Source: a virus
Taxonomy: Duplodnaviria > Caudoviricetes
DNA: 64,000 bases
Virus record (IMG/VR): IMGVR_UViG_3300035520_001860
Coordinates: 1-64,000 of that record
Strand: one strand, 5' to 3'
Shown in pieces: positions 16,327-63,374 of this stretch. The notes beneath the pieces are model-generated. The model did no database searches. It saw nothing but the letters and a program-made list of their open reading frames with translations, and was not told where the DNA came from. The position numbers and the translations under genes are program-made. Position 1 is the stretch's first letter, and each line of letters begins with the position of its first letter.

Positions 16327-17361
16327 TTGGCAAAACGTATAGATATAACTGGACAACAATTTAGTAATTGGAAAGTAAATTATAGATTGAATAATAGCAG
16401 ATACATGTGCACATGTTTATTGTGCGGTAAACAGTATGAAGTTGAATCATACAAGCTTAGGAAAGGTTTGACTAAGTCATGCTTTAATTGTGCAATGAAT
16501 AACAGAAGTAATCAGCAAGTTAATAATAAGTATAACAAACTTTATAAATTATTTAAAAGTGAAAATGTTATATATAACACTGAAATATTTGCTTATTTAC
16601 CTGACAAAAAGATTGGGGTAAATTTTGTACCTAATGTTGACAATGAAAATACTACAATGTACAATGTTCAAAAATTAACATTACAGTATAGAGAAAAAGG
16701 TATAAGGCTTATTAACATTTTTAGTTATGAATGGGAAGATGAAGATAAGCAAGATAAATTAGTAAATACAATAAAGATCGCACTTGGTACATCAGAAATA
16801 AGAAGAATATATGCAAGAAAAACAAAAATAGTACTTATGAATAGTAGGGATACTAGGGAGTTTCTTGATGAAAACCATTTACAAGGCTACACATCAGCAC
16901 CTATAAATATAGGATTAACATATAATAATGAACTTGTAGCTTTAATGACATTTGGAAGGCCAAGATTTAGTGGTGAATCAGAATATGAATTGATTAGATT
17001 AGCATTTAAAGCAAACACAATAATCCTTGGTGGAGAAGAAAAGCTATTTAGATATTTCATACAAACATATAAGCCAGATAGTGTACTAAGCTATTGTAAC
17101 TTAACAAAGTTTAGGGGAGATTCATATTATAAAGTAGGATTTAAAACATATGGAGATTGTATTACATCACCTAATTATATGTGGGTAAATGATGAATTAA
17201 AATTAGCATTACCAAGATATAAGTGTATGAAACATAAATTATTACAAAGAGGCTGGGGAACAGCAGATATGACAGAAAATGAAATTATGAGATCAATAGG
17301 TTTCAAAAAGGTTTATGATGCAGGTAACATAAAATTTTTATGGTATGCAGAATCAAATTAG
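16327..17361 (+). CDS. Zn-repeat / degenerate PD-(D/E)XK / Mom-like GNAT protein, paralog 1 (1 repeat)
   Basis: One DITGQQF...CTCLLCG...SCFNC repeat; eroded nuclease motif EIFAYLPDKKIGVNF; intact YARK...NHLQGY...TFGRPRF...YELIRL domain. Confidence 0.75.
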   Translation: MAKRIDITGQQFSNWKVNYRLNNSRYMCTCLLCGKQYEVESYKLRKGLTKSCFNCAMNNRSNQQVNNKYNKLYKLFKSENVIYNTEIFAYLPDKKIGVNFVPNVDNENTTMYNVQKLTLQYREKGIRLINIFSYEWEDEDKQDKLVNTIKIALGTSEIRRIYARKTKIVLMNSRDTREFLDENHLQGYTSAPINIGLTYNNELVALMTFGRPRFSGESEYELIRLAFKANTIILGGEEKLFRYFIQTYKPDSVLSYCNLTKFRGDSYYKVGFKTYGDCITSPNYMWVNDELKLALPRYKCMKHKLLQRGWGTADMTENEIMRSIGFKKVYDAGNIKFLWYAESN

Positions 17362-42784: not shown

Positions 42785-44767
42785 ATGGGAGCACCTAGTA
42801 TTCCAAAGGAAAACATTACAGGTTTAGTTGTAAAGGGATGGATAGTAGATAGGTATGACACAAAAGGTAAATGGGTATGCAAGTGTGAAAAGTGTGGAAA
42901 AGAAGAAATATTCAGAGCATATCATTTAAAAGAAGCACGAGTTAAAATTTGTAATCATTCAAATAATAAGGCTACACATACATTTAAAGATGATTTGACA
43001 GGAAGAACCTTTGGTGAACTAAAAGTAATAGGATTTGATATAGTGAATGGTGTGTGGAAGTGTAAATGTTCATGTGGAAAAGAAGTATACCATACTACAT
43101 ATCAATTAGTAACAAGGGGTGTGAAAACATGTGGACACAGCAGTGGTGTACTAAAAGACCTTAGAGGAAAGAAATTTGGAGAATTAATACCAATTGAATA
43201 CCTAGGTGATAGAACCTGGAAATGTGAGTGTTCTTGTGGAAAAATTACAAACGTTAGAACAACTGACCTTGTGAGTGGAAACACACAATCATGTGGTCAT
43301 CTTAAAACCGGAGCACCTGTAATAGACTTAACAAATCAGCAATTTGGAAACTGGACAGCTTTAAAATATGTTGGAAACAGCTATTGGCAATGTAAGTGTA
43401 CCTGTGGTAATATAGAAAATGTTCATTCATATACATTAAGAAATGGAACATCAACAAGGTGTTCATCACCATTGCATAGAGTAACAGATATAAAAGGAAG
43501 ACAATTTGGTGAGCTACATGTTGAAGAATATACAGGCAATGGATTCTGGAAATGTAAGTGTTCCTGTGGTAAAACAAAAAACATACTTGGAGTCAACTTA
43601 AGAAATGGAAGTACTAGATCATGTGGATGTATGACAGACAAATTATTAAGACAAACATTATTTAGTAGATACAATGAGATATGTCCATCAAGAGTAGATA
43701 ATGCAAGAAGCACACAACAGATAGAAATTTTACATACAAAAGAATTGTTTAATGCACTCCTAGTAGAATACACAATAAGTTATGGAAAACCAGATGCATA
43801 TGCATTAGCAGATATATTAGGCGTTAGTAGATATACAATAGTCAACATGGCTAATAAGTATGATTTACTAGATAAAATAAAAATATACTATAATAGTAGT
43901 AAAGGAGAAAACCAGGTAGCAAACTTTGTAAGAAACATATACAACGGAGAAGTAATACAAAACACTAAGAAAATACTAGATAATGGCAAGGAACTAGATA
44001 TATACATCCCAGATAAACACATCGCAATAGAATTTAATGGAACCTACTGGCATTCCACAATCTACAAAGATAAGTATTATCATCAACAGAAAACATTAGA
44101 TTGTCATAGGCAAGGAATACGATTAATCCATATATTTGAATATGAATGGAATGATGCAGACACACAGCAGAAAATAAAGAATCACTTAGAATTACTATTA
44201 AGTAACAATATACAAACCATTGGAGCACGAAATACAGAAGTAAAAGAAATAGATAAGCAAACAGCAAAAGAGTTTATAGATAAGTACCATCTTCAGAAGT
44301 ATAGTGAGTCATCGGTTAATATAGGATGCTTTTACAACAACGAACTGATTGGAGCATTAACATTAGGTCATCCAAGATTCAACAGTGAGTATCAGTATGA
44401 AATCATAAGATTTTGTTGGAAAGATAGAGTAAAAGTAACAGGTGGCCTAGAGAAATTATTTTCATACTTTATAAAAAATTATCATCCAAAGTCAATAATG
44501 GCATACTCAGATATATCAAAGTTTACTGGCAATTGTTATACAAAGATAGATTTCAAACCAATAAAACAAAATACAATCACAGAACCAAACTACGTATGGG
44601 TTGATATAGAAAGCAACCAAGTACTATCAAGATACCAAACACAAAAGAAGAAGCTAATAGCTAATAATTTAGGTACAGAAGAACAAACAGAAGATGAGAT
44701 AATGGATAATAATGGATTTTTCAAGATATACAACTCAGGTAATATTAAGATGCAATGGGAATACTAA
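42785..44767 (+). CDS. Zn-repeat / HTH / PD-(D/E)XK nuclease / Mom-like GNAT protein, paralog 2 (5 repeats)
   Basis: Five DL.G..FG...W.C.CSCG...SCGH repeats; HTH ALADILGVSRYTI; ELDIYIPDKHIAIEFNGTYWHS; C-terminal GNAT-like domain. Confidence 0.82.
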   Translation: MGAPSIPKENITGLVVKGWIVDRYDTKGKWVCKCEKCGKEEIFRAYHLKEARVKICNHSNNKATHTFKDDLTGRTFGELKVIGFDIVNGVWKCKCSCGKEVYHTTYQLVTRGVKTCGHSSGVLKDLRGKKFGELIPIEYLGDRTWKCECSCGKITNVRTTDLVSGNTQSCGHLKTGAPVIDLTNQQFGNWTALKYVGNSYWQCKCTCGNIENVHSYTLRNGTSTRCSSPLHRVTDIKGRQFGELHVEEYTGNGFWKCKCSCGKTKNILGVNLRNGSTRSCGCMTDKLLRQTLFSRYNEICPSRVDNARSTQQIEILHTKELFNALLVEYTISYGKPDAYALADILGVSRYTIVNMANKYDLLDKIKIYYNSSKGENQVANFVRNIYNGEVIQNTKKILDNGKELDIYIPDKHIAIEFNGTYWHSTIYKDKYYHQQKTLDCHRQGIRLIHIFEYEWNDADTQQKIKNHLELLLSNNIQTIGARNTEVKEIDKQTAKEFIDKYHLQKYSESSVNIGCFYNNELIGALTLGHPRFNSEYQYEIIRFCWKDRVKVTGGLEKLFSYFIKNYHPKSIMAYSDISKFTGNCYTKIDFKPIKQNTITEPNYVWVDIESNQVLSRYQTQKKKLIANNLGTEEQTEDEIMDNNGFFKIYNSGNIKMQWEY

Positions 44768-49112: not shown

Positions 49113-50867
49113 ATGGCAGTACTAAACATAATTAAAAAGGACCTAATACCTAAGTATTATGTGTGTGAATTAAGCAAAGATAAGAGTGTAATTGTACATG
49201 AGAATTTGCTAGATAGTAACTTTACTAAAGTAAGAATGGACAAGAGAACTATAGATTTAACAGAAAGTAAGTTTGGTAATTGGCATGTGCATTATTATCT
49301 TGGGGATAGGAAGTGGTTATGTGAGTGTTCATGTGGTAGGCTATGTGCAGTTATTGGATATAATCTAAGTTCTGGTAGATCAACATCATGTGGGCATGAA
49401 AACTATGATGATTTAACAGGTAAGCGGTTCGGAGATTGGCAGGTACTAGAATATGCAGGAACTGAGCATGGAATGACTAGATGGTTATGTGAGTGTTCAT
49501 GCGGAAATAAAAAAGAGGTATATGCAAAAGTACTTACAAATGGGAGGAGTAAGTCATGTGGACATAGTACTAATGCTTTTAATGACCTTACTGGAAAGCA
49601 ATTTGGAGAATGGAGTGTTTTAGAGTATGAGGGGGACCACTATTATAAGTGTCAATGCTCCTGTGGCAAAATAAAAAGCGTAGCTGGGTATTCTTTAACA
49701 CGAGGAGATAGCTTATCTTGTGGGCATAAATCAGCAGCCTGTAGAAAAGATACAATGATGCAGAGATACGGAGACACAGTTCCTGGAAAAAATAGAGAGC
49801 AATGGCAAATAGATATATTATCATCAAAGGAGATATTGGAAGCTTACATAATACACAAAGGGTATAAGCCAACAGCAGAAGAGTTAGCTAAGGAACTTGG
49901 TATAAATAAAACTAATATGTATAGAAATATACATAAGTATGGTATAGAGAACCTTATACTCATAGACTATAATTCATCTAAATATGAAAGAGAGATTGTA
50001 GAATTACTGAATAGTTGGGGAATATGCAACATTGAGGTTAGAGATAAAAAACATGTACCTGGTTTCGAACTAGATATATACATCCCAGACAAAAAACTAG
50101 CAATAGAGTTTAATGGTAGTTATTGGCACTCAGATTTATATAAAGATAAATACTATCATCAAGAAAAAACAATCGAATGTGCAAAACGACACATACAATT
50201 AATTCACATATTTGAATATGAATGGAATGATAACGATACTAAAGAAAAATTAATTAATCTACTGTATACAAGACTAGTTAACACAAAAAATTATATAGGA
50301 GCAAGGGAAACAGTAGTAACATTTATAGATAGTAGTATAGCAAAAGAATTTTGCAATAAATATCATTTGCATGGGTATAGTAATTCAAGTATAAATATAG
50401 GATGCTATTATAAATCAGATTTAATAGGGGTTTTAACATTTGGAAAACCAAGATTTAACAGTAATTATCAATACGAATTAATAAGACTGTGCTGGAAAGA
50501 TGATATAAAGGTACACGGCGGATTAGAAAAAATGTTTACATTATTTATAAAAAGTTACAATGTAAATAATATTATCAGTTATTGTGATATATCAAAGTTT
50601 AATGGAAATGCATATTTGAGACTTGGTTTTACAGTGCAAAATATAAGTGAGCCAAACTATATATGGTATAATTTAAGTAAAAAAACTAAACTAACAAGAT
50701 ATAAAACTCAGAAACATAAATTAGTAGAGGCAGGATTTGGCGATGCAAACAGTACAGAGTCAGATATAATGGAAGACCTAGACTATGTAAAAATACATGA
50801 TAGTGGAAACTTAGTTTTAGAATGGAGAAATCAAAATGGCAGTCAAAGTACCAACAATATGGAATGA
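49113..50867 (+). CDS. Zn-repeat / HTH / PD-(D/E)XK nuclease / Mom-like GNAT protein, paralog 3 (3 repeats)
   Basis: Three repeats; HTH ELAKELGINKTNM; ELDIYIPDKKLAIEFNGSYWHS; GNAT-like C-terminus. Confidence 0.82.
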   Translation: MAVLNIIKKDLIPKYYVCELSKDKSVIVHENLLDSNFTKVRMDKRTIDLTESKFGNWHVHYYLGDRKWLCECSCGRLCAVIGYNLSSGRSTSCGHENYDDLTGKRFGDWQVLEYAGTEHGMTRWLCECSCGNKKEVYAKVLTNGRSKSCGHSTNAFNDLTGKQFGEWSVLEYEGDHYYKCQCSCGKIKSVAGYSLTRGDSLSCGHKSAACRKDTMMQRYGDTVPGKNREQWQIDILSSKEILEAYIIHKGYKPTAEELAKELGINKTNMYRNIHKYGIENLILIDYNSSKYEREIVELLNSWGICNIEVRDKKHVPGFELDIYIPDKKLAIEFNGSYWHSDLYKDKYYHQEKTIECAKRHIQLIHIFEYEWNDNDTKEKLINLLYTRLVNTKNYIGARETVVTFIDSSIAKEFCNKYHLHGYSNSSINIGCYYKSDLIGVLTFGKPRFNSNYQYELIRLCWKDDIKVHGGLEKMFTLFIKSYNVNNIISYCDISKFNGNAYLRLGFTVQNISEPNYIWYNLSKKTKLTRYKTQKHKLVEAGFGDANSTESDIMEDLDYVKIHDSGNLVLEWRNQNGSQSTNNME

Positions 50868-61781: not shown

Positions 61782-63374
61782 ATGCAACCGACTTTTCAAG
61801 ATTTGACTGGACAAAAATTTGGTGAAATGACAGTAGTTGGATATAACAGGGATGTAAGAAGATGGATTTGTGTTTGTGATAAAGGGCACTATTGTTACAA
61901 GCAAACAACACACTTGAAAACAAGACATAATATATGTAAACAGTGTAAAGCACAAAAAGATGCTTCATTAGTTGGAAGTAAAATAGGAGAATTGACAGTA
62001 CTAAAACAGGTATCAAGCCAAGAATATTTATGTCAATGTTCATGTGGAAAGACATGTATAAAACAAAAAGGACACTTAGTAGGTGGATATGTAAAATCAT
62101 GTGGACATTTGAACAAAAATAAATTTGAGAATTTAAGAGGTCAAAGATTTGGAAAACTTGTAGCAGAAGAGTATGTATCAAAAGAGGCAGGTTGGAAATG
62201 CAAGTGTGATTGCGGTAATATAGTAAATGCTCTACCAGCTAATCTAAAAAACGGAAGTACAGCTTCATGTGGATGTAGTAATCCATATAAATTAATAGAT
62301 ATAACAAACAAGAGATTTGGAAAATTAGTAGCAGTAAGACACATATACAGAGGATTGTGGGAGTGCCAGTGTGATTGCGGTAACATATGCGAAAAACAAT
62401 CATATGATTTAAGAAATAACAGAGTTATATCATGTGGATGTGAGTCTAGCGAATCATATAAAGAGTTTCAGTTATATGAATATATAAGGTCAATATACAA
62501 CGGAGAAATTATAAAGCATAACAAAACAATATTAAAAGGTAAAGAGATAGATATATACATACCAGAAAAACATATTGCAATAGAGTTCAACGGTAACTAT
62601 TGGCATTCTTTAAAAGAAAAAAGATATCATCAAGATAAAACAATAGACTGCGTAAAACAGAAGATAAGACTGATTCATATTTTTGAGTATGAATGGGATA
62701 ACGATATTATACAAGAAAAATTAAAAATATACTTAAAGACAATATTAAATGAAAGTGAAGCTAAAGTAATATATGCAAGAAACACAAATGTACACGAGAT
62801 AAATCAGGATATAGCACAAGAATTTTTAAATAAGTATCATTTACAAGGATATGCATCATCTACAATTAACATAGGATGTTATTATAATGAACAACTGATT
62901 GGAATGATGACATTTGGTAAACCAAGATTTAACAACTCCTACGAATATGAAATAGTAAGACTATGTTGGTTGCCTACAATACATGTAGTTGGGGGCTTGG
63001 AAAAATTATTTAGCTATTTCCTTACAAAATATAATCCACAATCTATTATAACCTATGTAGACATTTCCAAGTTTACAGGTAATTCATATTTAAGAATAGG
63101 GTTTAAGTTGATACTACCAGACCCTATAACTAAGCCAAACTATGTATGGGTATCACACCATGGCAACACAGTAAAAAAACGGTATCAAACACAAAAAGCA
63201 GACCTTGTTAAAAATGGACTTGGAACAGAAGACCAAACCGAAGATGAGATTATGGAATCATTAGGTTATTATAAAATATATGATTGTGGTAATATCAAAC
63301 TAGAGTGGGTTAAGGAGGATAACAATAAATGGGAAATCACGACTATATACAAAAGGGAAATAACGGTGGTATAG
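61782..63374 (+). CDS. Zn-repeat / PD-(D/E)XK nuclease / Mom-like GNAT protein, paralog 4 (4 repeats, no HTH)
   Basis: Four repeats; EIDIYIPEKHIAIEFNGNYWHS; GNAT-like C-terminus. Confidence 0.82.
   Translation: MQPTFQDLTGQKFGEMTVVGYNRDVRRWICVCDKGHYCYKQTTHLKTRHNICKQCKAQKDASLVGSKIGELTVLKQVSSQEYLCQCSCGKTCIKQKGHLVGGYVKSCGHLNKNKFENLRGQRFGKLVAEEYVSKEAGWKCKCDCGNIVNALPANLKNGSTASCGCSNPYKLIDITNKRFGKLVAVRHIYRGLWECQCDCGNICEKQSYDLRNNRVISCGCESSESYKEFQLYEYIRSIYNGEIIKHNKTILKGKEIDIYIPEKHIAIEFNGNYWHSLKEKRYHQDKTIDCVKQKIRLIHIFEYEWDNDIIQEKLKIYLKTILNESEAKVIYARNTNVHEINQDIAQEFLNKYHLQGYASSTINIGCYYNEQLIGMMTFGKPRFNNSYEYEIVRLCWLPTIHVVGGLEKLFSYFLTKYNPQSIITYVDISKFTGNSYLRIGFKLILPDPITKPNYVWVSHHGNTVKKRYQTQKADLVKNGLGTEDQTEDEIMESLGYYKIYDCGNIKLEWVKEDNNKWEITTIYKREITVV

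Follow-up and report, generated by a model that had tools for sequence, protein, structure and literature searches.

The window considered here is the first 64 kb (64,000 nucleotides) of a 133.6-kb IMG/VR virus record (IMGVR_UViG_3300035520_001860; CheckV completeness 59%). On its + strand, a 660-amino-acid open reading frame (ORF) at 42785-44767 encodes a Hef-like homing endonuclease that carries a further conserved domain at its C-terminal end. This domain, encoded by 44216-44764 and followed by the stop codon, can be assigned with high confidence to the Mom family of GNAT proteins. Phage Mu Mom was shown in 2026 to transfer glycine from Gly-tRNAGly to the N6 position of adenine in double-stranded DNA (PMC13219725). 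As to its role in the endonuclease, we tentatively favour, by analogy, that of an active transferase whose marks on the sites of the resident genome would keep the linked nuclease from cutting them.

Genes for Hef-like endonucleases rank with the commonest selfish genes that large phages carry. Most of the genome annotations seen call them plain 'homing endonuclease' and ignore the conserved C-terminal half, and two say nuclease/acetyltransferase. The resemblance to Mom and the idea of a restriction-modification system are already in print: Iyer, Anantharaman, Krishnan, Burroughs and Aravind described Mom-REase fusions of jumbo phages in 2021 and predicted that momylation shields phage DNA while the nuclease attacks other DNA (PMC7824862). 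They also credited phage PA5oct with 'five momylating enzymes' (PMC7824862), and since PA5oct has exactly five matches to the domain studied here, annotated as Hef-like homing endonuclease, both studies concern the same family. Their account reads the fusions as weapons and assumes an acyl-CoA donor, and homing behaviour, the changes at Mom positions S124 and Y59 and nuclease-dead copies are not discussed in it (PMC7824862). What is new here is a residue-level comparison with the new Mom structure, together with a nuclease-dead paralog, in a kind of protein that is already described and very common.

Hef-like endonucleases with a shared C-terminal domain

An earlier note on this DNA had placed a Mom-like domain at 44215-44767; this interval indeed corresponds to the C-terminal part (residues ~478-660) of the 660-amino-acid ORF. 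A tblastn search with the focal protein found three further paralogs in the window, each on the + strand: paralog 2 at 49113-50867 (584 amino acids; GNAT domain at ~50274-50828), paralog 3 at 61782-63374 (530 amino acids; GNAT domain at ~62751-63308) and paralog 4 at 16327-17361 (344 amino acids; GNAT domain at ~16789-17343). A fifth copy lies outside the window on the same record (G000:C1:74503-76395). The five motifs that had been listed for the window copies were recovered by alignment in 4/4 of them, with T.EF for A.EF in the 344-amino-acid copy as the sole exception. Because the C-terminal domains of the paralogs are 42-63% identical and the domain has matches (E≤1e-3) to 13,886 cluster representatives from a library of 1.84 billion proteins, the likeness between the copies is, at the level of sequence, a matter of homology and not of chance.

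The copies share an order of parts, namely an array of Cys-rich repeats of ~55 amino acids, sometimes a helix-turn-helix (HTH) element, a nuclease block (ELD.Y.P, IEFNG.YWHS, RLIHIFEYEW) and the C-terminal domain of ~190 amino acids. The focal protein has all four. Its N-terminal array of ~5 repeats (C.C.CG ... SCG), the presumed DNA-targeting module, occupies 42785-43700 (approximate limits) and was delineated by tblastn self-hits, alignment and matches to PHROG 374, 22195 and 18493 in multiple stretches. Its EDxHD/Vsr-like PD-(D/E)xK nuclease domain lies at 43898-44194 and was recognised by a profile match to PDB entry 3r3p. The Cys-rich repeats look like modular zinc-ribbon DNA-reading units. 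Their number is the main difference between the window paralogs, at about 5, 3, 4 and 1 (42785-43700, 49113-49800, 61782-62500 and 16327-16540, respectively).

PHROG 3339, 'homing endonuclease', matches the copies at E values from 1e-65 to 1e-89 (1.8e-88 for the focal gene). A profile of the family compared with PDB sequences reaches the nuclease domain of I-Bth0305I (3r3p) at E 1.8e-6, and Pfam REase_MTES_1575 matches the paralogs weakly. The EDxHD/Vsr-like homing endonucleases have I-Bth0305I as their prototype, and those who described it counted Hef-type enzymes in the same family (PMC3239194). Relatives in sequenced phages are labelled Hef-like homing endonuclease, F-LimX or EDxHD homing endonuclease, and occasionally 'nuclease/acetyltransferase'. 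The nuclease motifs ELD and IEFNG.YWHS are intact in 4/5 paralogs and degenerate in the 344-amino-acid copy. Taken together, these matches show the proteins that bear the domain to be Hef-like (EDxHD/Vsr-type) free-standing homing endonucleases. They resemble the Hef-like/EDxHD group (Hef of the T-even phage U5, I-Bth0305I) in having a nuclease domain homologous to that of I-Bth0305I, and in that the genes are free-standing, lie by replication genes and are patchy in related phages. I-Bth0305I itself differs from the paralogs in being intron-encoded, with NUMOD/HTH motifs at its N-terminus and no GNAT domain (PMC3239194), whereas the paralogs have Cys-rich arrays.

Of the top 285 family members, nearly all have the GNAT domain fused to a nuclease; the nuclease motif is missing from 16 of these relatives, and in 15 (~5%) hardly anything, or nothing, precedes the GNAT domain. 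Two relatives, P0002 (1039 amino acids) and P0290 (1114 amino acids), are about double the usual length. P0002 has two stretches that match the GNAT domain, and both may be tandem fusions of endonuclease genes.

Kinship of the domain with Mom

Fold search, family hidden Markov models (HMMs) and profile-profile comparison all place Mom closest to the C-terminal domain, which bears out the resemblance to Mom-type GNAT enzymes proposed earlier. An AlphaFold2 model of the domain, built on 60 relatives, has a predicted local distance difference test (pLDDT) score of 95.5. Its best Foldseek match is phage Mu Mom (8bv8; E 6.9e-7), followed by an entry at 1.3e-5; 63 PDB entries match at E≤1e-3, and those listed are Mom and GNAT acetyltransferases. 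In VIA-align the model superposes on Mom 8bv8 with Z 14.3 and a root-mean-square deviation of 2.4 A over 132 residues, which is first by Z. The Z scores of 12.4-14.3 to 50 entries identify the fold as that of GNAT enzymes. Ordinary GNATs nevertheless reach Z 13-14, within 1 Z unit of Mom and hence a tie, which counts against reading Mom kinship out of the structure. The fold by itself says GNAT, and the kinship with Mom comes from evidence at the level of sequence.

Among Pfam families, Mom (PF25680) is the only significant one for the domain. With 28.2 bits the focal domain exceeds the cut-off of 27.1, but its match is confined to profile positions 2-51 of 202; two of the other paralogs score 21.7-22.4 bits, likewise within the first 50 profile positions, and the remainder do not match. 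A precomputed PF25680 assignment is present on the window protein and on ~15% of close relatives. PHROG 1384, 'Mom-like DNA modification protein', matches paralog 2 at E 3.2e-8 over profile positions 11-179 of 245. When a 165-sequence profile of the domain was compared with a 111-sequence Mom profile by hhalign, the probability was 88% and the E value 2.9e-6. By contrast, the 60-member family profile gave no significant hhalign match to the Mu Mom sequence taken singly, and searches of PDB sequences with a paralog profile and with the 60-member profile did not find Mom, returning only the nuclease relative 3r3p. Family HMMs, profile-profile comparison and fold search were needed to bring out the kinship.

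The domain and Mu Mom share the GNAT fold and, by HMM and profile comparison, an N-terminal block of the form ARxT.V..I....A..F...H. They also share a two-helix insertion between strands beta6 and beta7, which in Mom is family-specific, HTH-like and essential (Silva et al., PMC13219725). The model of the domain places helices 155-160 and 170-176 between strands 146-149 and 180-183. For a modelled Mom homolog (pLDDT 92.1), a comparison of secondary structure, not a superposition, puts helices 174-178 and 184-192 at the same topological place. A GG pair, invariant or 97% conserved, stands at the start of helix 88-100, and the full spacing of the phosphate loop, Q/R-x-x-G-x-G/A, is not matched there.

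Several features set the two proteins apart. The domain is the C-terminal part of a nuclease of 344-660 amino acids, whereas Mom is a stand-alone protein of ~230 amino acids under Com control. The domain lacks the 89-105 loop of Mom, and W48, which the Mom dimer requires, aligns with Gln in a high-confidence block of the profile alignment.

Active-site residues and the nuclease-deficient paralog

The residues important for Mom are H58, Y59, R111, S124, D149, R151, Y159, W48 and W181 (PMC13219725). Their equivalents in the domain were mapped by hhalign alignment, secondary-structure registers and alignment with distant members. The global-mode hhalign alignment was poor, and a local low-mact alignment was combined with the secondary-structure registers for this purpose. 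Positions are given below in the numbering of the domain construct, to which 466 is added to obtain the residue in the 660-amino-acid protein, and conservation is over 165 family members.

The best conserved positions of the domain fall on the Mom active site. The equivalents of E108 and R111 (E73 and R76) are 100% conserved (165/165) and present in all five paralogs. Those of H58 (H36; 98%), G156 (G116; 99%), Y159 (Y119; 99%) and W181 (W139; 99%) are nearly so, and the GG loop is 97-100% conserved. Equivalents of the active-site residues persist in members that are just 20-30% identical, including the T-even phage gene at the hef locus. In an alignment of such distant members the R111-equivalent Arg is always kept, and the E108-equivalent Glu is replaced by Asp in one, OP1. 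The F-LimVIII row of this alignment, translated out of frame, was disregarded.

Four positions weigh against a straightforward transfer of Mom chemistry to the domain. S124, which is essential in Mom and is there the third residue of helix alpha3, followed by Arg, corresponds to E90; this position is Glu in 67% of members and Ser in 9/165. All four window paralogs have Glu-Lys after the invariant GG (GG.EK), so that the Ser of Mom is missing from them. Y59 corresponds to L37, a position occupied by Leu, Ile or Met. D149 corresponds to D110, where 81% of members have Asp and 15%, the 344-amino-acid paralog included, have Asn. R151 has no exact equivalent, although a 98%-conserved Lys is found one position further along (+3 from D110). 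Distant members (20-30% identical), the T-even hef-locus gene included, have Ser or Thr followed by Lys or Arg at the S124 place, as in Mom (GGASKL, GGLTKM). As far as the alignments tell, the family thus retains most of the Mom constellation, and the clade in the window has altered two functionally important positions, S124 and Y59. Of the Mom active site, these paralogs keep the equivalents of H58, E108, R111, Y159 and W181 but not S124 and Y59. The acetyl-CoA and iron chemistry behind the binding assays suggested in the earlier note derives from the 2020 model of Mom (PMC7261163), which has been superseded, as Mom uses Gly-tRNAGly (PMC13219725).

One of the five paralogs separates the fates of the two domains. 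Positions that ≥85% of 259 relatives share, 29 in the nuclease and 43 in the GNAT domain, were scored as kept or lost in each paralog. The four long paralogs keep 27-29 of the 29 nuclease positions and 38-43 of the 43 GNAT positions, whereas the 344-amino-acid paralog (16327-17361, with one Cys repeat) keeps 14/29 nuclease but 41/43 GNAT positions (Fisher p 5e-6). The Asp, Glu and His equivalent to the catalytic residues of I-Bth0305I have been lost from this paralog, and its ORF is intact. The 285 relatives mentioned above were picked by GNAT similarity and cannot show a generally faster decay of the nuclease, so the comparison within one genome was used instead. Loss of the nuclease catalytic residues with retention of the GNAT domain argues, from conservation patterns, that the domain is under selection for a function that does not need cleavage.

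Two GNAT-only ORFs among the relatives are of interest beside this paralog, and neither settles the function of the domain. P0167 (L007 3001-3666) is a stand-alone relative of 221 amino acids, 28% identical and without a nuclease, which keeps the His, the Glu..Arg pair and GGLDK; its gene lies beside a PadR-type regulator on an apparently bacterial contig. P0160 (L005 2169-3669) is an ORF of 222 amino acids that overlaps the end of an upstream 295-amino-acid ORF in another frame, and is probably part of a frameshift-split endonuclease gene.

Mobility and possible functions

Among sequenced phages, 348 genomes encode the domain, up to 11 times each, and ~14,000 protein clusters from metagenomes contain it. 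Campylobacter phages of the NCTC12673 type have 9-11 copies per ~132-kb genome, and the Lak megaphages of Prevotella have 2-3. A T-even phage has the same nuclease-GNAT architecture between nrdA and nrdB, at the hef locus, the interval in which hef replaces mobE (PMC2988022).

The record analysed here is that of a large (jumbo-type) phage, in which the five genes are dispersed over the replication module. The copies adjoin genes for an FtsK-like ATPase, a helicase, the large subunit of topoisomerase II and a DnaB-like helicase, and also lie near the clamp loader. Paralog 2 is directly upstream of, and overlaps, the helicase gene, and paralog 3 separates the topoisomerase II large-subunit gene from the one after it. 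The closest relative found, a linear phage contig of 268 kb (G001; 89% complete), has flanking proteins that are 52-85% identical. It carries a single copy of the domain, compared with five here; that copy, at the one shared locus, follows the FtsK-like gene in the same place as the focal gene but is 42% identical. Three of the other four copies, those whose loci were compared, are missing from G001. There is no trace of copy 3: the topoisomerase gene and the homolog of the next gene are direct neighbours, 81% and 52% identical to their counterparts. The place of copy 2 is held by two unrelated ORFs. Such patchy presence at intergenic sites is, by the gene order of these two genomes, the usual pattern for genes of free-standing homing endonucleases.

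Some further observations concern the same loci. The two endonucleases adjacent to the FtsK-like gene (42785-44767 here and L003 8097-9782 in G001) are 42% identical where the flanking genes are 57-85% identical, and this divergence could reflect either an old, fast-evolving insertion or an independent invasion by another paralog. Two genes downstream of copy 3, a 1248-amino-acid ORF without a PHROG match (G000:C1:64364-68110; L002 1364-5110) is absent from G001, where its neighbours are adjacent, and marks a second insertion at this spot. Genes flanking the endonucleases were also compared with those of G001 for recoded 'immune' target patches, by synonymous differences and CpG counts. No local signal was found, and with synonymous divergence uniformly high, at 0.4-0.5 differences per identical codon, the comparison is uninformative. 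The window as a whole (1-64000) has its large ORFs all on the + strand, a GC content of ~31% and no tRNA genes, and IMG/VR classes the record as a provirus.

The reading that we tentatively favour would have the repeat array bring each paralog to its own DNA site, where the nuclease would cut alleles that lack the gene. The GNAT domain would be an active acyl or aminoacyl transferase directed at nucleic acid. By analogy with Mom, its target might be a flipped-out base and its donor an aminoacyl-tRNA or a similarly activated molecule, so that the sites of the resident genome would be marked against cutting, as by a single-chain restriction-modification enzyme. On this view the nuclease-dead paralog would serve purely as a marker or protector. 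Type IIG and IIC enzymes (MmeI, BcgI) offer an analogy, in that one chain unites nuclease and DNA modifier with a targeting module common to both; their modifiers are S-adenosylmethionine-dependent methyltransferase domains that are not homologous to the GNAT domain here, and their sites are short. An active marking transferase is favoured because the most conserved residues are those of the Mom active site and are kept across very distant members, because each copy pairs a GNAT domain of its own with a different repeat array, because the nuclease-dead copy retains the domain, and because the domain is absent from the intron-encoded relative, which by inserting destroys its own target. The absence of a GNAT domain from I-Bth0305I fits a need for self-protection in free-standing forms only. 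A single-chain restriction-modification system, or protection of its own allele by an endonuclease, both of which the earlier note had suggested, is plausible.

Besides the altered residues, several points tell against the marking reading. A modifier with the specificity of the nuclease would protect the naive target too. Other free-standing homing endonucleases protect themselves by differences in target sequence and need no modifier. We know of no report of modified adenine from bulk nucleoside analyses of Hef-rich phages, and in the literature no modification has been reported for any member of the fusion family and no paper testing the fused domain was found. Were the fused domain active, it would show how free-standing homing endonucleases spare their own genome, and would provide naturally targeted DNA-acylating enzymes. 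In a stronger form, which we think rather doubtful, each paralog would be a programmable element that either cuts or marks. The array would set the site, the nuclease would cut naive alleles, and the Mom-like domain would add a site-specific adduct, tRNA-derived or of another acyl kind, that immunises the resident allele, with the 344-amino-acid copy as a stand-alone site-specific DNA aminoacylase. If this were true, the ~14,000-cluster family would constitute a second, sequence-targeted class of DNA-acylating enzymes.

The main rival, to which we give somewhat less weight than to the marking reading, is that the domain is a pseudoenzyme with a DNA-handling role. By binding or bending DNA, by holding a flipped base in its Mom-like cleft and helix insertion, or by dimerising, it would help the nuclease to find or cut its site without any group transfer. 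In that case the nuclease-dead paralog would bind DNA site-specifically, perhaps as an occluding protector or a regulator, and the family would be a clear case of an enzyme fold recruited for DNA handling. The altered catalytic residues of Mom (Glu for S124, Leu for Y59, Asn for D149 in 15%, R151 unclear) are in keeping with this, as is the fusion to a nuclease in nearly all of the top 285 members. The helix insertion and positively charged cleft of Mom, which is a dimer, have been proposed to bind DNA (PMC13219725), and EDxHD enzymes work as homodimers over long footprints (PMC3239194). Pseudoenzymes, however, usually lose the very residues that are most conserved here, those that map to the Mom active site (the R111 and E108 equivalents in every one of the 165 members, and the GG loop). 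Moreover, I-Bth0305I recognises and cuts its site without such a domain (PMC3239194), and the variable Cys-repeat arrays already resemble a specificity module.

Two other readings are less likely. The domain might be an active transferase whose substrate is something other than the phage's own target, such as a tRNA, a protein, a small molecule, a cut DNA end or competitor DNA, with a role in host takeover or repair bias and not in immunity. GNAT acceptors are indeed very diverse and include aminoacyl-tRNA (TacT, AtaT) (PMC13219725), the active site is unlike that of Mom at S124, Y59 and R151, and the nuclease-dead paralog has kept its GNAT domain. The near-obligate fusion to a DNA-targeting nuclease nevertheless points to a DNA-linked role, and the Mom-type helix insertion, thought to touch DNA, is retained, which makes this improbable. 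Least probable of all is the published prediction of a restriction-modification-like weapon and not a homing element (Iyer et al. 2021; PMC7824862). Phage adenines would be modified widely by the Mom-like domain, and host DNA or that of superinfecting phages, being unmodified, would come under attack from the nuclease. In its favour, genomes in several phage groups hold many copies (5 in PA5oct, as many as 11 in Campylobacter phages). Against it, one broad modifier would suffice where every copy has its own GNAT domain beside a different array, patchy presence and intergenic placement by conserved genes are typical of homing endonuclease genes, and cleavage of the nrdB gene has been reported for hef of phage U5 (PMC2988022).

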